From Candidatus Iainarchaeum sp. (GTDB lineage Archaea; Iainarchaeota; Iainarchaeia; Iainarchaeales; Iainarchaeaceae), in assembly GCA_043812975.1 (NCBI GenBank), contig JBDRLP010000027.1, forward strand, positions 85,731 to 149,730: a stretch of 64,000 nt of DNA, read 5' to 3'. Below the pieces are notes generated by a model. The model worked only from the letters and a program-made list of their open reading frames with translations, searched no databases and was not told the origin of the DNA. The position numbers and the translations under genes are program-made. Shown here one piece after another: positions 492 through 45,291 of this stretch. Within the stretch, counting starts at the first letter, position 1; every line of letters starts with the position of its first letter.

Positions 492-526
492 TTCGCACCG
501 GCAAGAATTTGAGTTCGCACCGGCAA
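492..526 (+). promoter_or_regulatory. tandem TTCGCACCGGCAA motif (locus 1) upstream of nurA
   Basis: CGCACCGGCA at 494-503 and 516-525 (22-bp period); TTTAAA at 542-547. Repeat is seen directly, regulatory role is inferred. Confidence 0.55.
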
Positions 527-570
527 CCAACCCTAAGTTAATTTAAAAACCTCGAACCTTTGCTTTTACT

Positions 571-1656
571 ATGAATATGTCTAAAGTGATTGATTCTGCG
601 GTTGAAACAATCCATTCAGGAGAACAAAGAAAAAAACTGGTTACTGAAAAGCTCACTCCGTTAAAATATAAGAAATTTTCTTCTCAGGAGCTCCCGGAAA
701 AAGTATTGGTTCTTCCTGTTGAAAAGTGGATTCCCGATTGTATAATTGGAGGGGTGGATTCTGGTTTTGTTGCAAAGCGCCTTGCGTCAGTTGACCTTGT
801 TCTGATTAGAGCTATGGGTGTCTGCTTTGATTACAAAAAGGGCATTGTGGATAAAGCCAATTATTATCCTGGTTATTTTCAGTTTCCGGAACCACATTTA
901 AGCAATAATGCATTGGAAGAAGATGAGGCTGAGCAAAGCAAATCATTAATGCGTTTAAAAGAAGAAGTTAAAGCGTCAAAAAAATTAATTGAAGAGCATT
1001 CTCCGAAATATTTGTTTATTGATGGTTCTATTGTTCCGCAGTACCAAGACAAACCAAGAAAGGAATCTAAGTTAACTGATAATTATATTAATATTATTCA
1101 GGAGTTTGAATCTTTTTATGAATTGGCTGAAAAAAATAATTGCACATTAATTTCTACGGTGGAAGATTCTAGAGGTTCTAGGTTCAGACAGATTATTCAG
1201 GATGAAATTCTTGAGAAGGAAAAAATTCTTGAAAAAGAAAAATTAGATGGTTTGTTTGATTCTTCTTTTTTGGATTATTTTTTGAACGTAGGAGAACGCT
1301 CAAGTTGTTTTACTTACACGAAAAATATTAAACAGCATCCTGTTCTTTCTGATTTCAATGAAAAGTGGAGCAACCATATTTTTGGTTTGTACATTAAACC
1401 TTCTAATTATGACAAACCCTTGAGGGTTGAATTCATCACTAAAGGGGGCATAAAAGAAAAAGCAGATGAAGTCGCAAAAGTCGCGTTTGCTTTAAGTTCA
1501 TTACATCGCGAGTATGCTTATCCTTCAATTTTAATAGAGGCGGATATGCATGCTAAATTAAAGCAGGATGAGATTGAAATTGTTTATAATAAAATAATGG
1601 ATAAATTGGGTAATTCAATTAAACTAAAAATGAGGCGTGATAATAGGCCTTTTTAG
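571..1656 (+). CDS. nurA: NurA 5'-3' nuclease
   Basis: GGVDSG, FIDGS, LRVEF and YPSILIEADMHAK motifs; same operon as herA. Confidence 0.9.
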   Translation: MNMSKVIDSAVETIHSGEQRKKLVTEKLTPLKYKKFSSQELPEKVLVLPVEKWIPDCIIGGVDSGFVAKRLASVDLVLIRAMGVCFDYKKGIVDKANYYPGYFQFPEPHLSNNALEEDEAEQSKSLMRLKEEVKASKKLIEEHSPKYLFIDGSIVPQYQDKPRKESKLTDNYINIIQEFESFYELAEKNNCTLISTVEDSRGSRFRQIIQDEILEKEKILEKEKLDGLFDSSFLDYFLNVGERSSCFTYTKNIKQHPVLSDFNEKWSNHIFGLYIKPSNYDKPLRVEFITKGGIKEKADEVAKVAFALSSLHREYAYPSILIEADMHAKLKQDEIEIVYNKIMDKLGNSIKLKMRRDNRPF

Positions 1657-1665
1657 GTGATTTTC

Positions 1666-2181
1666 ATGGTATTTGAACGTTTCTCAGAAGTTGATTCAAC
1701 TGTTTTCAGAAGTTCGATTCCGCGAACAAATGAAGACGTGGATTTTTTGGTTTCTAAAGGGATTTCAGAAGTGATTTCTTTTGAACTTGTTAATAAATCA
1801 TTGAGCGCCTATGCGGAATCAAAAGGAGTTAAGTTTCATGATTTTTCAACTATTGATCAGGATTATTTGCCTGATAAGAGAGAGGCAACTGCGTTTTTCA
1901 AAGTAATAAAAAACGCTGAAGTTTCAGGAAAGAAAGTTTTGCTTCATTGCAGTGCGGGTTTGCAGAGGTCTGGTGTGATGGTTGCTGTTTATTTGGTTGG
2001 AAAAGGAATGCATCCACTTCAAGCATACCAATTCGCAGGCACTGCCGAAGTTACAATTAAAGAACCATTGATGCGTGAGGCGAATGCGTTAAAAGATCTT
2101 TACACTAATATTAGAAAAGAGAGGCCTGGTTCAAGAAAATTGAGACATGTTGTAAAAAAACCAAGGAGAAAATTGAAATGA
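1666..2181 (+). CDS. dual-specificity/protein tyrosine phosphatase-family protein
   Basis: Intact CX5R loop HCSAGLQRSG; SD-like AGGTGA at 1655-1660 before ATG 1666; basic C-terminal tail. Confidence 0.85.
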   Translation: MVFERFSEVDSTVFRSSIPRTNEDVDFLVSKGISEVISFELVNKSLSAYAESKGVKFHDFSTIDQDYLPDKREATAFFKVIKNAEVSGKKVLLHCSAGLQRSGVMVAVYLVGKGMHPLQAYQFAGTAEVTIKEPLMREANALKDLYTNIRKERPGSRKLRHVVKKPRRKLK

Positions 2182-2294
2182 TTTGTCCAAAATGCGGAAA
2201 TGATTCTTTTGAAGAGCTTCCTTTAGAAAAAGGAAAACAAAAAAGATGCAGAAAGTGCGGTTTTGTGGGAAATCCGATGAGTGATTTCACGTGA
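2178..2294 (+). CDS. 38-aa Zn-ribbon microprotein (not in ORF track)
   Basis: MICPKCGNDSFEELPLEKGKQKRCRKCGFVGNPMSDFT; two CxxCG motifs; ATGA overlap upstream, GTGA overlap downstream. Confidence 0.8.
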   Translation: MICPKCGNDSFEELPLEKGKQKRCRKCGFVGNPMSDFT

Positions 2295-2473
2295 CTCAAA
2301 AAGAAAAAAATAAAGTAACTTTTTGTTCAAGCTGCGGTTCTACAAATGTAAAACCAAGTTATGCAATGGGAACTATTGATAATCGTGTTGAGTGCTTGGA
2401 TTGTAAAACTTTAGAGTTTCCTGTTGAGGCTGAGGAAAAGTTCAGGAAAAAGTTTATGGAGAGGAAAAAATGA
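2291..2473 (+). CDS. 60-aa Zn-ribbon protein
   Basis: CSSCG...CLDC; 4-bp overlaps with both neighbours. Confidence 0.75.
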   Translation: MTQKEKNKVTFCSSCGSTNVKPSYAMGTIDNRVECLDCKTLEFPVEAEEKFRKKFMERKK

Positions 2474-2862
2474 GCAGATCGCCTTTTTATTATGAGCACT
2501 CCCCAAAACTATTTTCAGGAAGGATTTCTTTAATAAAATCCGATTTAGATTATTTGAATAGTAAAGGAATCAAAAAATTAGTCTTATTACAGGATGTGAA
2601 TGATAATATATTGAATGCTCTTAGAACTGCCGGTTTTGCCGTTAAAGTTTTTCATTTAGGTACAAATCCCCCTTATGATTCAGAAAAATTAAGAGTGGTT
2701 TCTCGCGCTATGGCTTCTGCTAGAGTTTCTTTGCAAAAAAATGAAGGAGTGGCTGTTTTATGCAATCAAGGATTTCGTTCATTTGACATTTGTAAAGAAA
2801 TTCATAATCCTATTGACAGGAAAAGATTAACCAAAACTCGAATTAGGCGGTTGAGAAAATGA
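2470..2862 (+). CDS. degenerate DSP/PTP-like protein
   Basis: DLDYLNSKGIKKLV resembles DVDFLVSKGISEVI of the upstream DSP; loop VLCNQGFRS is CX4R; basic tail RIRRLRK. Confidence 0.55.
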   Translation: MSRSPFYYEHSPKLFSGRISLIKSDLDYLNSKGIKKLVLLQDVNDNILNALRTAGFAVKVFHLGTNPPYDSEKLRVVSRAMASARVSLQKNEGVAVLCNQGFRSFDICKEIHNPIDRKRLTKTRIRRLRK

Positions 2863-5800
2863 CCAAAAACGAAGAAATAGGAACAGTAATAAGCACTCCA
2901 GATGGTCCTTCTCCGAGTGCTTTGGATTTTGTTGTTTATTCAGGAACACTTCACAGAGGAATGTTTGTTGAATTAGATTATGCTGAAGGCACTCTTGTTG
3001 CTTTGGTTACTGATGTTGTTAAAACAAATCGTTATTTTGAAAGAGTTGAATCAGTAAAGGAATTCGAATCCTCAGGAACAAAATTATTTGAACAATTCCC
3101 TACTCATGAATGGGAATTCCTTTTAGCAAAAACAAGACCGCTTGGAGTTTACAATAAAGGGATGATTAAGCGTTCTAGTTTTCCTCCTTCTCCTGGGGCT
3201 AAAGTAAGGGTTGCTTCCAAAGAAACTCTTGAAAACTTTTTAGGTTTAGATTTGGAAAAAGGTTTAATGCTTGGAGAAATTGAACATCACGATGTTTCAG
3301 TAAAATTGAACATGTCAAGATTATTCCAGAAACATTTAGCTATTTTGGCTATGAGTGGAGCAGGTAAGTGTACAAGTTTTGATGCTGAAATATTGCTTGA
3401 AAATAAGGTGCAGGTAAAAATTGGCGAATTAGTTGATTCAATATTAGAGAAAAATAAAAGAGTTGAAGATGGTGTTGAATTTTGGGAAGGGGATTTGGAT
3501 CTAAAAACTTATTCTTTTAATGGAGAAAAAATTGTTCCTGCGGAGGTCAAAGGAGTTTACCGAAGGAAGTCTCCGCATGAATTGATTAAGGTCACAACTC
3601 GGAGTGGTAGGATTTTGAAGGTTACTCCTGAACACTTAATCCCTATGTTTAGTGGTTCTATTGAGTGGTTGCATGCAAAGGATTTGGTTAAAAAAAACTA
3701 CTTGATTTTTCCGAGGATAAATTGGAGTGGTTCTGAGCAAGTAATGGATTTTTCTTCAGTTGTTGGCGAGAAAACCATAGTTCGCGGTGGTTTTGCGGAG
3801 TCAAAGAAGTCCGGTAAAAAGGTTAGGTTATTGCAGAGTGTTGACAAGGATTTTGTCAGATTGTTTGCTTATCTTTTGGCGGAAGGACATAATACTTGCG
3901 GTTCTCAAATTTGGTTTAGTAACGAAGATGAGTTTGTACGAAAGGATTTTTCGAAGCTGGTTTTTGATAAGTTTGGTTCTCGTGTCAGTGTAGCTAAACA
4001 TGGGGGCGATTTGATTTTTTATAATAAGTTGTTGGCTCAGGCTCTTTCAAAGAAAGGGTTTACTAATTCTAGTTGGACTAAATTTGTTCCTCCTGAGATT
4101 TTGCGGAGCAGACGTGAAGTTTTGCTTTCTTTTCTTTCTGTTTTTATTGATTGTGACGGGCATATAAACAAAAGCAAGTCTGAGTTGGAGATAACTTTAG
4201 CGAGTAAAAAACTTATTTTTGGTATTGAAGAAATCCTCACAAAGCTGGGTATTGTTTCTTTTAGAGGGATCAAAAAGACTGATGGCAAGGTATATCAAAG
4301 ATTGTTTGTTAGAGGGGCGGAATTGAAAAAGCTGAAGGATCTCGATCTTTTGATTGGTTATAAAAAGAAGGCTCTTGAGAAATGGATTGCCTCTAAAAAC
4401 AACCCTAATGTTGATGTTGTTCCCAATTTACATTCTCATTTGTTTGAGTTGTTGTCTTTGTTGAGAATGCCTCAGCCACAGGCTGAGTCGTCAGGCATTA
4501 ACAATTATCTTTACCGCCGAGATAACCCTTCTAGGGAAAATTTGAGTGTTTTAATTTCTATTTTTGAGCGAAGATGTGTTGAGGTAGAAAAGGCAACTGA
4601 GGACGCTTATACTCTTTATAAAAGCATTCCTAAAGTTAGCGAAGAAGATGCTTTAGTGGTTGTTCAGGAAGCTTATTCCAGTGGTTTGGATTTTAATAAA
4701 ATCTCTTCAGGAAGTGGTGTTTCAAAAACTACTGCAAGAAGGGTTGTTAGAGGTATCACTTCTCCAAAAAGTAGTGTTTTTTCTTTGGCAAAAAACATTT
4801 CTCAGTCTAGGTATGCTGAATTTGGATTCGTTGAAAACTTCGACGGGAATTCAGCTTTAACTTCTATTAAGGAAATTTGTGAGAGGCTTGGTCATGAGAC
4901 ACAGACTTTTTGTGTTTCAAATGGGGTTTACAAGAATTTTCTATATTCTCATTCAAAAGATAGGGGTGTTGCTGACCATTCTATTGTACTCAAGTTGTCA
5001 GAGTCTCTTTGTGAAATTGCGAGAAAATCTGAGAAAAATTTGGGCTTAGCTAAGGGAATTATTTTTGATTTGAAGAAAGCGATTGATTTGAATGCTTTTT
5101 TTGACGAGATTGTGAAAGTTGAAAAAGTTCCTTCTGAAAACGAGTTTGTTTATGATCTTTCTGTTGATAATTCTAGTTTTGTTGCTAATAATTTGTTGAT
5201 TCATAATAGCTACTTAACTTCCGTTCTCTTTGAAGAACTTTTAGAAAGAAAAAAAGAAGACGGAAGACTGGCTTTGATTGTAATGGATACTCATGGAGAA
5301 TATAGGAATTTTGCTGAACCAGTAAAAGATTCAAAGAGTAAAGATTTTTCATCCAAAACAAGATTTGTTAAAGCAAGCGAAATTAGCATCGGTGTTCCTA
5401 AGCTTTCTATCGGAATGCTTTCCATTATGATTCCTGGATTATCAGGGCCGCAGAAGAGAGACCTTGCGAGAGTTCTTGAAAAATTAAGAAGAGAAATGAA
5501 AGACGGTTTAGGCCCCTATGATTTTGGTGCTGTAAAATCTGAAATATTTAAGGATGAGGAAATGAAAGAGTCAACAAAATTGGCTTTGACTGGATGGATA
5601 ATTTCATTAGAACAGTTGAAACTTTTCGGAAAAACTGATAATCCAAGTATTAATGATCTTGTAAAACCAGGACAACTTACAATTGTTGATTTGAGTGATG
5701 TCATTGAAATGAAAAAGAAACAGATTATTGTTTCTTATTTTGCTTCGAAACTTTTCTTTGAAAGGCGCCAAAAAAGAATTGCTCCTTTTTCTCTTGTTTT

Positions 5801-6239
5801 GGAAGAAGCACATCAGTATTGCCCTGAAGGCACTTCAAAAGAAGGGGCTATTTCCAGAGGTATTATTGAAACAATTGCAAGGGAAGGAAGAAAGTTCGGT
5901 GCTTCAATTTGTTTAATTTCTCAGAGGCCGATTAATCTTTCAACAACTGCATTAAGTCAATGCGGCACTCATATAATTCTCAGAGTAACAAATCCTTATG
6001 ATCTTGATCACATTGGTAAAAGCAGTGAAGGTCTTGACAGGCGTTCGCTGGACATGATTACTTCTCTAAGAACGGGAGAAGCTCTTCTTGTTGGTGAAGC
6101 CGTAAATTACCCTACTTTTTTCAAGGTTCGAAAAAGGACTTCTCAGGATTCTATTCATGAAAAGTCTCTGGAGGAGGCTTCTGTTGAGTTTGAGGAAATA
6201 AAGGAAGCATCACAGAAGGATATTGAAGATTTGATGTAA
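2859..6239 (+). CDS. herA: HerA ATPase/helicase, intein-containing
   Basis: HLAILAMSGAGK|S Walker A, DTHGEY, LEEAH, IAREGRKFG, SQRP motifs. Confidence 0.92.
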   Translation: MTKNEEIGTVISTPDGPSPSALDFVVYSGTLHRGMFVELDYAEGTLVALVTDVVKTNRYFERVESVKEFESSGTKLFEQFPTHEWEFLLAKTRPLGVYNKGMIKRSSFPPSPGAKVRVASKETLENFLGLDLEKGLMLGEIEHHDVSVKLNMSRLFQKHLAILAMSGAGKCTSFDAEILLENKVQVKIGELVDSILEKNKRVEDGVEFWEGDLDLKTYSFNGEKIVPAEVKGVYRRKSPHELIKVTTRSGRILKVTPEHLIPMFSGSIEWLHAKDLVKKNYLIFPRINWSGSEQVMDFSSVVGEKTIVRGGFAESKKSGKKVRLLQSVDKDFVRLFAYLLAEGHNTCGSQIWFSNEDEFVRKDFSKLVFDKFGSRVSVAKHGGDLIFYNKLLAQALSKKGFTNSSWTKFVPPEILRSRREVLLSFLSVFIDCDGHINKSKSELEITLASKKLIFGIEEILTKLGIVSFRGIKKTDGKVYQRLFVRGAELKKLKDLDLLIGYKKKALEKWIASKNNPNVDVVPNLHSHLFELLSLLRMPQPQAESSGINNYLYRRDNPSRENLSVLISIFERRCVEVEKATEDAYTLYKSIPKVSEEDALVVVQEAYSSGLDFNKISSGSGVSKTTARRVVRGITSPKSSVFSLAKNISQSRYAEFGFVENFDGNSALTSIKEICERLGHETQTFCVSNGVYKNFLYSHSKDRGVADHSIVLKLSESLCEIARKSEKNLGLAKGIIFDLKKAIDLNAFFDEIVKVEKVPSENEFVYDLSVDNSSFVANNLLIHNSYLTSVLFEELLERKKEDGRLALIVMDTHGEYRNFAEPVKDSKSKDFSSKTRFVKASEISIGVPKLSIGMLSIMIPGLSGPQKRDLARVLEKLRREMKDGLGPYDFGAVKSEIFKDEEMKESTKLALTGWIISLEQLKLFGKTDNPSINDLVKPGQLTIVDLSDVIEMKKKQIIVSYFASKLFFERRQKRIAPFSLVLEEAHQYCPEGTSKEGAISRGIIETIAREGRKFGASICLISQRPINLSTTALSQCGTHIILRVTNPYDLDHIGKSSEGLDRRSLDMITSLRTGEALLVGEAVNYPTFFKVRKRTSQDSIHEKSLEEASVEFEEIKEASQKDIEDLM
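3369..5207 (+). mobile_element. intein (613 aa) with LAGLIDADG endonuclease in HerA Walker A
   Basis: GK|CTSFD...LIHN|S junctions, block B TPEH, motifs LFAYLLAEGH and FLSVFIDCDG, VYDLSV block F. Confidence 0.92.
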
Positions 6240-7418: not shown

Positions 7419-7465
7419 TTCCGCACCGGCACGAACTTGGAGTTCGCACCGGCAATGTACCCCTT
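7419..7465 (+). promoter_or_regulatory. tandem CGCACCGGCA motif (locus 2) upstream of polB-like gene
   Basis: Copies at 7422-7431 and 7445-7454 (23-bp period); TTTAAA at 7476-7481. Confidence 0.55.
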
Positions 7466-7501
7466 AAAAACGCTTTTTAAATCAGAATCGAAAGTTGTAG
7501 T

Positions 7502-8998
7502 ATGCTCCATAATACGCGATTATTCCTGAGCAAGGTTAACTATAACTCTGAGAAAAGACAGATTACTGTAGAGTTTTCAAAGAAAAATCAGAAATCTTCA
7601 AAGAAGTACTCATTTTTTCCAAAAATGTATCTTTCTCTGAAAAAAATTTCTGAAAAACATTTACTTGATGCTTTAGCTGATTATGATGTAAGAAAATTAA
7701 AAATAGATTTTAAAGAAAATACAGCAACTATTTTTGCAGCAACATTTTCTGATTTGAAGAAAGTAAATAATCTTCTGAATAATTTTTTTAATTTACATTC
7801 AAATTTAATAGAACCTGAAAGGCAATTTCTGCTGGAAAAGAACTGGAGTTATTTTGATTTTTTTGATTTTTCTTATTCAGAACCCCAACAAATCCACACA
7901 ACTGAATTTCCTGATGTTTCAATGGACTTCCTTTCAGATTCTTTCAAAGAAACTATTGCTTCTTTATTGTTGAACAACAGGTCTCTTGCTAAAGAAACAA
8001 TTGAAAAAATCGTTTTTTCCAAGCTGTTAAGAATTCCTTTAATAGGCCGAGAAGAAGATAAGTCTCTTGAGGAAATTTTTATTGAAAATATTTTTTTCCT
8101 TAGCGAAAAACCAATTTCTATAGGGGGGTATAGAAACAAATCTTATTTTAGGCAAATCCATAAAAAATCAGTTATAGATTTTTCAAAAATGGTTTCAGTA
8201 ATGGCTTCAAAGCCGTTCAATAATCTTGGTTTTGAAACCATTAATTGCAGCTGTTGCAAACCATGGGATAAAGAAGCAAAAAACATTTTGCCTTCTTCTT
8301 TAGTCAAGGTTAATTTTTTGAGGGAAGCTTTTTACTTTGACTCTGTTTCAAGTAACTGGGCTGATGCTTATCATTTTTCTAATAAGGAAATGCAACAGCG
8401 TGAAAAAAGAAAAAGGGAATATTTTTTGGATTTTTATCCTTCAGGCCCGTTTTCAAGAAACTCGTCTGAAAATATACTTTTAGCTGATGCATTAAATCTT
8501 GAACAAAAAGGATTGGTTAAAATAGTTTCTCATGAAAATCCTTCCTGGTTTTGCCTGAAAAAGGAAAGTGCTTTTTCTTCAGAAGTCAATCGTTTGTATG
8601 AATCTCTCATTACTCTTAATTCAGTTGTTGAGAAGGAAAGTAATTCGGTTGTTGCTTCTGCTGGTTTGTTTTTCTCTCAGTCCCTTGAATCTAGTCCTGG
8701 GCATCATTATAGAAAAATTTTAGATAAAACAACTTCTAGGCTTTTAGCTTCTTTTCCAGGGTTGCTTACAAATTCTTCCGGAAGGTTTTTTGATAAGAAT
8801 TTTGCAATTGCTTTGGAAGCTATTAATAGCCTTATTTTGAAGGATTTTGAAGAAATTGCCAAAAACTCCAAAACAAGGGTTACTTTCAAGGATTCTATTG
8901 CTTTGGTTGATTCTTCTTCTTTCATGTCTGCCTCTAAAGAGTTCAGAGACCTCTATAAGGTTGACAAACGCTTGTTGAGCGTCTCCAAAAGCTTTTGA
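7502..8998 (+). CDS. degenerate, probably inactive family-B DNA polymerase-like protein
   Basis: IEPERQFLL, IDFSKM...NLGFETINCSCC and WFCLKK resemble PolB/PolB2 segments; SLYPS, KxxxNSxYG and YGDTDS absent. Confidence 0.65.
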   Translation: MLHNTRLFLSKVNYNSEKRQITVEFSKKNQKSSKKYSFFPKMYLSLKKISEKHLLDALADYDVRKLKIDFKENTATIFAATFSDLKKVNNLLNNFFNLHSNLIEPERQFLLEKNWSYFDFFDFSYSEPQQIHTTEFPDVSMDFLSDSFKETIASLLLNNRSLAKETIEKIVFSKLLRIPLIGREEDKSLEEIFIENIFFLSEKPISIGGYRNKSYFRQIHKKSVIDFSKMVSVMASKPFNNLGFETINCSCCKPWDKEAKNILPSSLVKVNFLREAFYFDSVSSNWADAYHFSNKEMQQREKRKREYFLDFYPSGPFSRNSSENILLADALNLEQKGLVKIVSHENPSWFCLKKESAFSSEVNRLYESLITLNSVVEKESNSVVASAGLFFSQSLESSPGHHYRKILDKTTSRLLASFPGLLTNSSGRFFDKNFAIALEAINSLILKDFEEIAKNSKTRVTFKDSIALVDSSSFMSASKEFRDLYKVDKRLLSVSKSF

Positions 8999-12022: not shown

Positions 12023-12044
12023 GAACTTGTTCGCACTGGCAATG
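12023..12044 (+). promoter_or_regulatory. single motif copy (locus 3) GAACTTGTTCGCACTGGCAATG
   Basis: Core CGCACTGGCA 12032-12041; TTTAAA at 12059-12064. Confidence 0.5.
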
Positions 12045-12104
12045 AGGTCTCGAAACTATTTAAAGCAAATATATTTATACATTCATAGAGGTATAATTGT
12101 GAGT

Positions 12105-12314
12105 ATGGTTGCTAGTGATTCTTTTAAGACTTATGAATTCTATGCAAATGCTGATTTATCTAAGTATGCCGGTCAGTGGGTTGCAATAGTTAATAATAAA
12201 GTTATAGCCCATGGCAAAGATGTAAAGAAATTATTGAAAGAAGCAGAAAAAGAAGCTCCAAAAATCACTCCGTTTATAGCAAAAGTGCCTCTTAGAGATA
12301 TTCTTCTCTGGTAA
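12105..12314 (+). CDS. DUF5678-like small protein
   Basis: KYAGQWVAIVNNKVIAHGKD pattern; precedes an aspartic protease gene. Confidence 0.75.
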   Translation: MVASDSFKTYEFYANADLSKYAGQWVAIVNNKVIAHGKDVKKLLKEAEKEAPKITPFIAKVPLRDILLW

Positions 12315-12320
12315 TTGCAC

Positions 12321-12731
12321 ATGTCTTTCACTTTTAAATACAGAAAAGAGAAAATCGAAGGAAAAATTAGATATTTCCCAAAAGTTGTTATCAGTCTTTA
12401 CAATAAAGGTATCAAATTTGATTATCCTGCATTAATTGATTCCGGAGCAACTGATATTTTTGTCCCAAAACAGATTGCTGAAGCACTCGAGCTTGATTTT
12501 AAAGAAGAAGATATTGCCAGCAGTTGGAATGGTGATTTTAAGGTTTGGGGTTCTAATATAGGAGTTATTTTGGGCAAAGGAAGCCAGACCTTCAGAAGAG
12601 TTTTGCCATGCCTTATTCCTGATAGTGAAAATCCCAATCAAGAAGTAATTTTAGGCAGAGTATTATTCAAGTTCTTTGAGGTTACATTTAACGAACAAAA
12701 AAGAATTACAAAACTCAAAAAAATACAATAA
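12321..12731 (+). CDS. retropepsin-like aspartic protease
   Basis: ALIDSGAT catalytic motif and ILGR motif. Confidence 0.8.
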   Translation: MSFTFKYRKEKIEGKIRYFPKVVISLYNKGIKFDYPALIDSGATDIFVPKQIAEALELDFKEEDIASSWNGDFKVWGSNIGVILGKGSQTFRRVLPCLIPDSENPNQEVILGRVLFKFFEVTFNEQKRITKLKKIQ

Positions 12732-42619: not shown

Positions 42620-43885
42620 ATGTCCGCTCCCCTGAATGCATTAACCCCGAGCCCTGAAATTTGCGTGAAATGCAAAGGAAGATTATGGTGCGGTTCGAAG
42701 TGCTTTATTCTTGAGCGATTGGAAAGAAAAAAAACAACTATCCAGAACATTAAGCAGAATGAAATTCAGGGTCAAAGCCCTCCGGGTGTTTTTGTTTCAT
42801 GGCATGGTTACCCGAAAGTTAATTTTTCTCCGATGGCTCCTGCAATCGAACCTGAAAATAATGATGCGTGGATTACTGATGATACTGATTTATGGTTTGG
42901 CAAACCAGCAGAGGAAATAATCAATTTCAGGGAATCATTGGTCAGGGGAAACATGAAAATAGAAGTAAATCAGGCTAAAGATCCTGATTATAGTTTAACA
43001 GAAATCCATGAAACCCTGATGGCGAAAAAACCTGTTGATGTTGAAATGAAATTAAAAGGAGCTCCGAGAATGAGAGGAGTGTCTTTTTCAGATTTTCATG
43101 CTCCAATGGGGCCTCAAGCGGAGTTAAAAAAATTTTCAATGACTGAAAACCCCAGTATAAATCCAAAAATCGATTATCTTTATTCTGATACTGATGCAAA
43201 AAGTTTAGATGCAATGATTGAGCTTTACAAATCAGATGTCGGGGTTAACCAATTGCACAAGATTCTTAGTGCTGGAATGCTTGGGGTGAAAAAGAAGAGA
43301 AAATTTGTTCCGACAAGATTCGCGATAACGGCAATTGATTCCAATTTATCTGAATATTTCATAGATGAAAAAATTAAATACTTTCAGCAGATACCGGAAG
43401 TTGAACTTTATAATTCAAAGTATCTCGAAAACTATTTTTTCATTATATTGATTCCAAAAGAGTGGAGCTACGAGTTGATGGAAGTATGGAAGCCAGGCGC
43501 TTCATGGAACATTGATGCGAAAGAACCAACTTTTATGACTGATTATGAATTTTATAATGGGCGAAAAAATTATGCTGAAAATACTGCGGGAGGATATTAT
43601 GCGGTTAGGATTGCAATTGTTGAGCATTTAATGAAAAGAAAAAGACAAGCTACTGCATTGGTGTTCAGGGAAATTGGCGATTCGGGAGCTCCAAGTTTGG
43701 GTGTTTGGAAATGTAGAAACACTGTGAGAGATGCAATGTCAAAGAAGCCATTAACTTTTTCAACGGTCAATTTAGCTCTTGATTACCTTGCTGCAAAACT
43801 CACCGTCCCAATAAAATACTACAAAAACAACAGCAAGATTCTTGATGCTTTAGCCCATCAAAGAACTTTGTTGGATTTCTCATAG
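42620..43885 (+). CDS. nreA: Nre-family DNA repair protein
   Basis: CVKCKGRLWCG, SPPGVFV..GYPKV, VPTRFAITAID, GGYYA, C-terminal PIP-like QRTLLDF. Confidence 0.92.
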   Translation: MSAPLNALTPSPEICVKCKGRLWCGSKCFILERLERKKTTIQNIKQNEIQGQSPPGVFVSWHGYPKVNFSPMAPAIEPENNDAWITDDTDLWFGKPAEEIINFRESLVRGNMKIEVNQAKDPDYSLTEIHETLMAKKPVDVEMKLKGAPRMRGVSFSDFHAPMGPQAELKKFSMTENPSINPKIDYLYSDTDAKSLDAMIELYKSDVGVNQLHKILSAGMLGVKKKRKFVPTRFAITAIDSNLSEYFIDEKIKYFQQIPEVELYNSKYLENYFFIILIPKEWSYELMEVWKPGASWNIDAKEPTFMTDYEFYNGRKNYAENTAGGYYAVRIAIVEHLMKRKRQATALVFREIGDSGAPSLGVWKCRNTVRDAMSKKPLTFSTVNLALDYLAAKLTVPIKYYKNNSKILDALAHQRTLLDFS

Positions 43886-45291
43886 TCTGGTCTCTCGGGA
43901 ACAACCCATTCGGAAATATTCGGATTGTAAGTATAAACATGTCGTACGGATCTGACAACATTAAATTTGTCTGGAAAAAGACCTTTTTTAATAGAAATAA
44001 TATTTGCCATTTTCAGTATGTCAATATAAAATTTTATAGAGTGTCCCCACTTCCCCCCATAACTTTTCAGATTCTTATCTTTAAGTAGTTGATCAATTAT
44101 TTTGTACCTGTATGTTTCTTTCTGTTTTTTGATTGTTTTCAAAACTTCTATCAACTGAATTTTAGTCCCTCCTTGTTTCGGATAAACTTTTTTGAAAGAA
44201 TCTATTGCTTCCTGAAAAGAATTTACTTTTCCAGTGTAACCTTTTATAGAATCATTCAATTTATGCCATTTTTCTGTATTCGGTTCAAACAATTTTTTCC
44301 AGTCTTCCGCCTCTTCGTTGCTTAGTGCGCCGCTCCAAAACCGCCAGTATTTACAGCTTGTTCTTGTCATTTTCACGTGTTTTATTTTATTTTCCAGAAA
44401 AACATCGGTTAAATCGTTTAAAAAATTTTTGCTTGAAACACAAAATTCAATTTGATGTTTCATTCCAACTCCTGCCTCAAATGAAAGAGCACCAATAGCA
44501 AAAGCTTTTCTAAATTGTTTTTTTGATTTCTTAATTATTTTAGGCATTCCTACTGTTTTACATTTATTTCCATTCGGAAATTCAAAAATTTTCTGTAAGT
44601 ATCTTGAAAATACTTTGTTATTGAAAGTAATTTCCCATTCATTTGGACTCTTCTCATTTACTGGATAATTAAATCCAAATTCTTCATGAATCCATTTTTT
44701 GAAGACTATTAAATTGCTTTTGTGTCCATCAGTAATACAAAAAAAATTATCTCTTGATGAACCATCTGCTGCATGTGCTCCTGCAATTTTGCACAAGTTT
44801 TTTGTGAGTGTTTTTGGTGCTTTTACTATTCTTAATGGTGGTTGGCTAGCTTTCAAAAAATCTATTTTTGAAATCACTTGGAACTTTTTATCATTATTTT
44901 CTGTCAAATCAAGCAAAGTTTGCATGAAAATTAGTGGAACCCATTCTTTTCTTTGGTAAACAATTCTCTCTGCAGTAATAACAGAAACATTCAGTTTCTT
45001 TGCAATTAATTCTGAAAATCTTGCTTTTGAAAGTTCTAATTTAGAACAAGCTTCATCGATTAGATTTTTTAATTCTTGTTTCAACTCTGCCCCATTAGCA
45101 CAAATCCATTTTTTTGGTTTATCATCAACCTTGGGATCGTGCAATTTGAACAAGTCAATCTTTGGTGTGTTTTCCATGCCGCGAGCCTCTTTTCCAGAAA
45201 CAGACTGATCTAATTCTCTGCTCGCAATAATATTATTTGCCTTTTTGTCTTTAATGCTTTCCAAGGGGCACATTGCCGATGCGGTTCTCAT
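43858..45291 (-). CDS. free-standing LAGLIDADG-family protein with probable HTH and wHTH regions
   Basis: IAGAHAADGS and AIGALSFEAG motifs; no intein junction motifs; start either ATG 45291 or ATG 45177. Confidence 0.72.
   Translation of the reverse strand: MRTASAMCPLESIKDKKANNIIASRELDQSVSGKEARGMENTPKIDLFKLHDPKVDDKPKKWICANGAELKQELKNLIDEACSKLELSKARFSELIAKKLNVSVITAERIVYQRKEWVPLIFMQTLLDLTENNDKKFQVISKIDFLKASQPPLRIVKAPKTLTKNLCKIAGAHAADGSSRDNFFCITDGHKSNLIVFKKWIHEEFGFNYPVNEKSPNEWEITFNNKVFSRYLQKIFEFPNGNKCKTVGMPKIIKKSKKQFRKAFAIGALSFEAGVGMKHQIEFCVSSKNFLNDLTDVFLENKIKHVKMTRTSCKYWRFWSGALSNEEAEDWKKLFEPNTEKWHKLNDSIKGYTGKVNSFQEAIDSFKKVYPKQGGTKIQLIEVLKTIKKQKETYRYKIIDQLLKDKNLKSYGGKWGHSIKFYIDILKMANIISIKKGLFPDKFNVVRSVRHVYTYNPNISEWVVPERPDYEKSNKVL
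45263..45284 (-). promoter_or_regulatory. motif copy (locus 4) CGCATCGGCAATGTGCCCCTT
   Basis: 19/21 identical to 7445-7465; ATTAAAG 19 bp downstream on the minus strand. Confidence 0.5.

Follow-up and report, generated by a model that had tools for sequence, protein, structure and literature searches.

Why does the same short GC-rich motif recur upstream of four promoters within 64,000 nucleotides of archaeal DNA? The stretch in question, here called the window, belongs to Candidatus Iainarchaeum sp. (assembly GCA_043812975.1, contig JBDRLP010000027.1) and corresponds to positions 85731-149730 of contig C27 in a genome (G000) of 1.24 Mb with 34% G+C and 94% completeness. The motif, CGCAYYGGCA, is the core of an asymmetric element of about 21 nt that keeps its distance to the TATA box at orthologous genes in six genera. 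Most probably, it is the binding site of one sequence-specific protein and defines a conserved genome-maintenance regulon. A preliminary description of the window, made from its letters alone, had proposed an activator site for a DNA-damage or stress regulon and, as an alternative, a mobile micro-element resembling repetitive extragenic palindromes (REP) or miniature inverted-repeat transposable elements (MITE).

The core is present six times in the window, whereas 100 dinucleotide-preserving shuffles yield a mean of 0.13 and never reach six. All copies lie at the positions and on the strands given in the preliminary description (Table 1). Two pairs are indeed tandem, with periods of 22 and 23 nt, and the sequences of the second and fourth locus, CGCACCGGCAATGTACCCCTT and CGCATCGGCAATGTGCCCCTT, differ at 2 of 21 positions, which agrees with the 19/21 matches noted earlier. 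Genome-wide, 20 copies face two of the reversed control motif; the corresponding values in relatives are 17 versus 1 (G003), 25 versus 2 (G022) and 13 versus 0 (G008). The middle bases are CC, TC or CT in 17 of the 20 copies. The other three are of the CGCATTGGCA type, have neither a TATA-like box nor a promoter context anywhere in the genome and look like chance matches. A position weight matrix (PWM) built from the 17 copies adds copies that lie at promoters and deviate in the first or second base (TGCA.., CACA.., CCCA.., CAGA..), so that about 27 motif-bearing promoters are found in G000. The copies are spread singly at promoters over at least 20 contigs. When a wider contig collection was scanned with the core plus TATA pattern, most of the matches listed were single chance matches in bacteria. 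The recurrent genomes among them were metagenome-assembled genomes (MAGs) of archaea, including two Ca. Iainarchaeum records, and one bacterial MAG with two matches.

The element has a strict position. In all 17 copies with CC, TC or CT, the core is followed by a sequence related to AATG..CCCYT and then by an A/T box. A TATA hexamer is located 16-20 nt downstream of 12 of these 17 cores compared to 6.7% of 20,000 random positions; of the five cores without a hexamer, three show a weaker A/T box in that position, and two are the distal copies of tandem pairs. At the four window loci, the core ends 16, 20, 17 and 18 nt before the TATA box. The distances of 17, 22, 18 and 19 nt proposed previously deviate from these values depending on which base is counted as the start of the box. 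From 104 distinct sites of the family, the consensus yyCGCACCGGCAAyGArSyCT was obtained, with CACCGGCA as its core. Selection of these sites required a TATA hexamer and no fewer than 8 matches to the 10 core bases, so that they are unbiased only outside core and box. Here, positions +10 to +18 are conserved, and the TATA box begins 16-17 nt past the core in 75 of the 104 sites. Conservation stops 7-8 nt short of the TATA box and thus leaves exactly the room required for a B recognition element (BRE); in the 104 sites, the element ends before the BRE and never covers the TATA box or the start site. Only its central CCGG is palindromic. According to simple open reading frame (ORF) calls, an ORF starts 55-131 nt past the core at 24 of 27 proximal sites in G000. 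At ten of the 27 sites, it starts at 55-58 nt, which places the start about 25-30 nt past the TATA box and fits leaderless mRNAs. The co-orientation with the downstream gene and the fixed distance to the TATA box, both claimed before, have therefore been corroborated with larger numbers.

To ascertain how widely the element is kept, orthologues were located in a family set of 23 genomes from six genera, and their upstream regions were read; all following counts refer to an element at the same TATA distance. It is present at the radA promoter in 23 of 23 genomes and at the mcm promoter in 22 of 22, there often as CGCAGCGGCA. The promoter of a gene for a 498-aa protein carries it in 19/19 cases, the hef promoter in 13/15 and the promoter of a RecJ/GAN-like gene in 15/19, with three near-variants in addition. 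An operon encoding a micropeptide, a small protein and a Hel308-like helicase has been kept in all 23 genomes, and its promoter contains the element in 20 of them and a variant in one. In front of nurA, the element is found in 18 of 22 genomes, and the other four (G009, G020, G013, G018) have a degenerate version at the same spot. A motif variant CA(A/G)TGGCA is seen in G009, G013 and G018. Beyond the element, the sequence is not alignable between genera. That one set of orthologous promoters carries the element in all six genera argues for vertical retention under selection. Hence, retention before nurA and the PolB-like 498-aa gene in related genera, whose absence would have spoken against a regulon according to the preliminary description, was found, and radA, which it had suggested as a further gene to inspect, has the motif throughout the family. 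In other families of the order, a recognizable copy precedes radA in five of ten cases; two are doubtful, and three promoters lie beyond the sequence printed.

The genes behind the motif belong to two groups. Genome-maintenance genes in G000 comprise, according to Pfam, the operon of nurA, a phosphatase-like gene, a 130-aa gene and herA as well as radA, mcm and a Hef-type gene with helicase and ERCC4 nuclease. Further members encode a RecJ/GAN-like protein with DHH, DHH-CID and DHHA1 domains, a PDDEXK_1 nuclease, a PDDEXK_5 nuclease followed by an integrase, and the 498-aa protein. The micropeptide operon codes for a 27-aa peptide (MYxFRxxRFVE...), an 80-aa protein and a Hel308-like DEAD helicase next to orc1-1. 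The second group consists of selfish or accessory genes: three or four free LAGLIDADG genes, HicB, MazE-PIN, ParE, a nucleotidyltransferase-HEPN pair, two DUF7718/HVO_A0114 pairs, DUF5678 with an aspartyl protease and several small ORFs without a family. LAGLIDADG inteins interrupt herA, radA (C27:49429-51912) and mcm (C41:9515-13183) in G000. In several relatives, radA and mcm are free of inteins, with frames of about 320-350 and about 700 aa, respectively. For the relatives, 60 sites were fetched, comprising all listed for G007, G014 and G008 and 17 of 25 for G022. Among them, 53 are not of the TT type, and a TATA hexamer is correctly placed in 32 of these 53. A Pfam run on 52 of the 87 ORFs downstream revealed DNA methylases, a restriction enzyme, LAGLIDADG genes, toxin-antitoxin pairs, PDDEXK_1, TnpB, Bro-N, Nre (G008, G022) and Hel308-like helicases.

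Not all genes of DNA metabolism are included. When the 250 nt upstream of control genes were scored with the PWM, the best values for PolB, two PCNA genes, DNA ligase and the rad50-like gene of the window were between -7 and -13, compared to 20-31 for the nurA, radA, mcm and hef promoters. This means, the regulon comprises recombination, fork repair and the MCM helicase and not the whole replisome. The enrichment before repair genes anticipated by the preliminary description does not extend to the rad50-like gene.

At the window loci (Table 1), Pfam confirmed two of the four downstream gene assignments made before, the nurA-herA operon and the pair of DUF5678 and aspartyl protease. The other two were upheld in part. 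The 498-aa protein, previously regarded as an eroded polB, has no sequence match in Pfam, NCBIfam or the PDB. Its structure, predicted from 15 orthologues with confidence (pLDDT 87.9, pTM 0.89), retrieved exclusively family-B DNA polymerases in the best 50 Foldseek rows (E from 5e-8, TM by query 0.34-0.50, 7-11% identity). These polymerases exceed it in length by about 270 residues. At the level of the modelled fold, the designation as a shortened PolB-fold protein holds. Likewise, the presumed free LAGLIDADG gene, a 439-aa ORF, yielded no match in a Pfam search. It displays a language-model similarity of 0.96 to LAGLIDADG_3 clusters and groups with LAGLIDADG_3-bearing ORFs, and probably encodes a free-standing homing endonuclease of the LAGLIDADG type. 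The ATG of nurA is located about 25 nt past its TATA box, and its mRNA is probably leaderless or nearly so. The distal second copies at nurA and at the 498-aa gene are confined to this genome; the nurA promoters of G001 and G003 contain the proximal copy only.

Table 1. Copies of the element, TATA boxes and genes at the four window loci, and the micropeptide operon elsewhere in G000 (window coordinates unless a contig is named)
Feature	Position	Strand	Remarks
Distal copy at nurA	492..504	+	core 494-503; specific to this genome
Proximal copy at nurA	514..534	+	core 516-525, extended to ~534
TATA box of nurA, AATTTAAAA	541..548	+	
nurA operon	571..6239	+	Pfam, ORF calls
nurA	571-1656	+	ATG at 571; Pfam
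Dual-specificity phosphatase-like gene	1657-2181	+	nurA operon
130-aa gene	2470-2862	+	nurA operon; no assigned family
herA with LAGLIDADG intein	2859-6239	+	Pfam
Distal copy at 498-aa gene	7420..7432	+	core 7422-7431; not in the orthologous promoters of G001 and G003
Proximal copy at 498-aa gene	7443..7465	+	core 7445-7454; extended ATGTACCCCTT
TATA box of 498-aa gene, TTTTTAAAT	7474..7482	+	
498-aa gene, family-B DNA polymerase fold	7502..8998	+	predicted structure
Single copy before DUF5678 gene	12030..12050	+	core 12032-12041, CGCACTGGCA
TATA box TTTAAA	12059..12064	+	17 nt past core
DUF5678 gene	12099-12314	+	probable GTG start; Pfam
Aspartyl-protease-like gene	12315-12731	+	Pfam
Single minus-strand copy	45264..45285	-	core 45283-45274, CGCATCGGCA; extended ATGTGCCCCTT
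TATA-like box ATTAAA	45250..45255	-	18 nt past core
439-aa ORF, LAGLIDADG-type	43858..45177	-	language-model similarity, clustering
Micropeptide/small-protein/helicase operon	C9:7056-7386 (L415), continues on C38		relatives L416-L437

How might the element act? Judging from its sequence and position, a protein is predicted to bind it. Such a factor on the ~21-bp site would aid TBP and TFB onto the adjacent BRE/TATA of the about 27 promoters, and tandem copies 22-23 nt, i.e., two helical turns, apart would add cooperative occupancy. The conserved members radA, nurA-herA, hef, the Hel308-like operon, the gene for the RecJ/GAN-like nuclease, mcm and the gene for the PolB-fold protein would be switched together. 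Since the site is located wholly upstream of the BRE, activation is favoured over repression, albeit modestly. Activators of the Ptr2 and TFB-RF1 type use upstream sites to recruit TBP/TFB. Sites of the Ptr2, TFB-RF1 and EarA type directly precede the BRE, with constant spacing and orientation, and are sometimes tandem. The element shares with them the position by the BRE, the fixed orientation, the occasional tandem arrangement and presumably the recruitment of TBP/TFB; it differs in its sequence and in serving a genome-maintenance regulon kept across a DPANN order. From the activator site for a DNA-damage or stress regulon that was originally envisaged, the location just upstream of BRE/TATA and the repair-type gene set stand, and activation as well as a damage signal are still conjectural; the input could equally be replication stress or the cell cycle.

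Selfish genes, among them those for homing endonucleases, restriction-modification, toxin-antitoxin systems and TnpB, seem to have taken up this promoter module as well. Because homing depends on the recombination machinery, a shared switch would be advantageous for homing endonucleases. Selfish elements would share the host repair switch, as prophages and toxin-antitoxin systems do with the bacterial SOS response.

Several points weigh against a conserved activator regulon for genome maintenance. PolB, PCNA, ligase and the rad50-like gene are outside the set, which is neither 'all repair' nor 'all replication', and these negative controls could themselves be located in operons with promoters further upstream. 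The element is missing at hef in G004 and G011 and at the RecJ/GAN-like gene in G005. Some copies at selfish genes may have been inherited with the gene family and not selected independently. Finally, many promoters have a consensus-like BRE/TATA right after the element, and this fits a repressed strong promoter equally well.

The last point leads to the rival that survives best: The same site and regulon could be governed by a repressor, comparable to an SOS-box operator, which keeps strong promoters silent and is released by a damage or cell-cycle signal. It could, for instance, oligomerize over the adjacent BRE or act through tandem sites. The gene set with a recombinase, nucleases, toxin-antitoxin pairs and mobile-element genes resembles the bacterial SOS regulon, and at the second cdc6-type gene, 10 of 20 genomes have an inverted copy whose distance to the TATA box, 8-22 nt, is more operator-like. 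The LexA SOS box is palindromic, overlaps the promoter and is the target of a repressor that cleaves itself. Like the element, it is one site for recombinase, nuclease, helicase, toxin-antitoxin and mobile-element genes. By contrast, the element is asymmetric and situated upstream of the BRE. Archaeal repressors usually bind at the TATA box or the start site, whereas the element in the 104 family sites ends before the BRE. In addition, a search for the S24 peptidase domain of LexA (PF00717) in the 94% complete genome found none, while the control search matched 10 of 14 genomes. Altogether, we consider a repressor rather unlikely.

It is very improbable that the element is an extended core-promoter signal for an alternative TFB or TBP. 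Its fixed TATA distance and orientation and its vicinity to the BRE would suit such a factor. However, the 94% complete genome shows a single TFB gene, with two cyclin repeats in one frame, and a single TBP with two repeats, and the element lies at least 7-8 nt upstream of the BRE end. Beside the canonical TBP gene, a single-repeat ORF with a TBP fold (111-aa frame) was observed at C21:14190-14390.

A REP/MITE-like micro-element that landed near promoters can practically be dismissed: Many copies, some of them at selfish genes, a similar GAAyTTGAG linker next to a few of the G000 copies and genome-specific tandem duplications would be in accordance with it, but strict orientation and TATA spacing, retention at orthologous promoters across six genera, flanks that differ between copies so that only ~21 nt are shared, and the lack of terminal inverted repeats or a stable hairpin upon DNA folding of four motif stretches (z -0.41, -1.94, +0.74 and +0.65) led to its rejection. 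In the stretch with a z of -1.9, the linker itself is a small palindrome.

This linker, GAAyTTG(G)AG, is located upstream of several G000 copies (5/29 versus 3% expected, a modest enrichment), for instance in the window at 504-515 and 7432-7444 and at C10:3140-3156. It is not kept in the same promoters of G001 or G003, and could reflect recent copying between promoters. Tandem arrays with a period of 22-23 nt were also found in relatives; G003 has three copies at the helicase operon. At C45:9505-9547 in G000, two copies are arranged back to back 24 nt apart, each at one of two divergent promoters.

Which protein might read the element if it is the site of a regulator? Initiator-type proteins deserve attention by analogy. 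In Sulfolobales, Orc1-2 is one global regulator, an activator, that reads a proximal-promoter motif of the DNA-damage response, as stated in the accessible parts of two reports (PMC6061795, PMC9738581). The first of these, as far as its available text extends, defines the DNA damage-responsive element (DDRE) as ANTTTC within AATAGTTTCRGWDTACTCWS at the promoters of upsA, upsE, tfb3 and cedA1 (PMC6061795). Measured against this part of the literature, both cases are archaeal and comprise a short promoter motif that links genes of the DNA-damage-response type. The motifs differ: CGCACCGGCAA is found here and not ANTTTC. The gene sets differ, too, with radA, nurA-herA, mcm and hef taking the place of upsA, upsE, tfb3 and cedA1. 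In the accessible portion of another study, UV irradiation of Sulfolobus gave no rise in DNA repair gene expression (PMC2246294).

G000 has two Orc1/Cdc6 paralogues, one on C38 and a divergent one at C44:6560-7675 that shares an operon with the large RFC subunit, which follows it. Both score best against Cdc6-1-type chains (2qby_A, 243 and 191 bits) and weakly against ORC2 (1w5s, 71 and 59 bits). By these scores, neither is closest to the ORC2-type structure. At the second cdc6-type gene, the distance between the inverted motif copy and the TATA box is 8-22 nt in the 10 of 20 genomes mentioned above and stays within 200 nt in 15 of 20; outside the family, the inverted copy is present in one of five genomes. 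Two findings weaken this link to Orc. The inverted copy also serves a divergent conserved non-coding locus, and wherever insertions separate it from the cdc6 promoter, the promoter keeps a different box, CCACTGCAAyC.

Origin recognition boxes (ORBs) and mini-ORBs are asymmetric Orc1/Cdc6-bound sites with TTCC...GAA motifs, exemplified by an ORB1 oligonucleotide of P. furiosus in the available part of the source (PMC1904270). Compared with what that part describes, the element is similarly asymmetric, ~20-30 bp long and composed of a 13-nt core followed by a C/G-string. By eye, the reverse complement of the P. furiosus ORB1 core can be aligned to GTTCGCACCGGCAAT with a single gap and 11 matches over 14 positions, and the most conserved CA..GGCA coincides with it only partly. 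Moreover, the element has its C-string on the opposite strand and at a shorter distance from the core than the ORB sequence given there. Unlike ORBs, the copies are dispersed singly at promoters and not clustered around an AT-rich unwinding region, and both orc1/cdc6 promoters carry distinct boxes of their own. That the element is a diverged ORB-like site read by the second Orc1/Cdc6 paralogue, with an initiator-type AAA+ protein as master transcription factor, is doubtful, and this paralogue is a weak candidate for the binder, put forward by analogy with Orc1-2 of Sulfolobales. If it were true, an AAA+ initiator would have been recruited as a transcription regulator independently of Orc1-2. 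Homing endonucleases and inteins would in that case have adjusted their expression to this factor, restricting DNA cleavage to times at which the recombination machinery is expressed.

Three observations concern the promoters of the two initiator genes. The second cdc6-type gene has a box (T)GCCACTGCAAyCC right before its TATA box (L133:545-570, C44 of G000, and relatives), which in G002 reads TTCCACTGCAAC and is close to the mini-ORB core in the accessible text of PMC1904270. A GC-rich double-hairpin insertion (L133:495-553, C44 of G000) parts the motif from the cdc6-type promoter. At orc1-1, a palindrome, TACCGGAAGTGGTTTGCTTCCACAAC, adjoins the TATA box in the 10 family genomes read (L132:30-75, C38 of G000; L154-L163). 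It is distinct from the regulon motif and probably an Orc1 autoregulation or origin box.

Eukaryotic G1/S regulons controlled by E2F and MBF include MCM, Cdc45, Rad51 and Cdc6. The set described here parallels them with MCM, a Cdc45/RecJ-like gene, RadA as the Rad51 counterpart and a Cdc6-type gene next to a motif copy; the motif itself is unrelated. An E2F_TDP search of the genome found none, but the control search also matched no control genome, so that this negative carries no information. HVO_A0114-type winged helix-turn-helix genes are located in accessory two-gene cassettes. An 82-aa MarR-like ORF was rejected as regulator, as it is present in only 3 of 23 genomes. It is located between carA and carB on the minus strand (C40:27832-28077; L411:530-778), abuts the carA stop codon and contains a high-scoring motif copy inside its own frame. 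It may be the relic of a motif-bearing selfish cassette.

To our knowledge, Sulfolobales are the only archaea for which a regulon of DNA damage or replication has been tied to a defined cis-element. Literature on archaeal radA and promoter regulons and on promoters of Diapherotrites, Iainarchaeota and DPANN, considered without supplements, held no account of the element, and neither did the publications matching four 10-mers, as judged from titles and abstract starts of part of the matches. In an order of uncultivated archaea with tiny genomes, a single site links radA, nurA-herA, hef, the Hel308-like gene, the RecJ/GAN-like gene and mcm, and a 21-bp bait provides a concrete handle on the regulator. 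Co-regulated products without an assigned role, the PolB-fold protein, the micropeptide and a small beta-sheet protein, as well as the non-coding locus probably act in genome maintenance.

The small beta-sheet protein is the ~80-aa product of the helicase operon. Neither Pfam nor PDB sequences matched it. Its model comprises four strands and a helix (pLDDT 88.8). The top Foldseek rows, Pur-alpha and PC4-type proteins, are weak (E 0.16-0.5), and VIA-align reports a best Z of 5.5 to an uncharacterized protein and a Z of 4.0 to Pur-alpha. The conserved non-coding locus on C44 (L134:640-703, minus strand) begins directly downstream of a motif and TATA promoter, divergent from the second cdc6-type gene. 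It follows the pattern GGCTCATTGG..GTTAAGGGA..CTNCTTCT..CCCTTAACTCCC, which was also observed in relatives (L135, L136, L138, L141-L144). An Rfam search of five loci around it yielded no match at E up to 1; RNAalifold of seven copies predicts an invariant stem of 8-12 bp with 0 compensatory pairs, which speaks neither for nor against a structured RNA.

Most regulon genes other than radA look leaderless. The radA leader extends over about 100 nt from the TATA box to the start codon (L051-L073) and contains blocks kept across genera, e.g., AGCATTCGTGCCAATGGGC...GCCAAGGGAA...GGAGGAA. This long leader may provide a second, post-transcriptional control.

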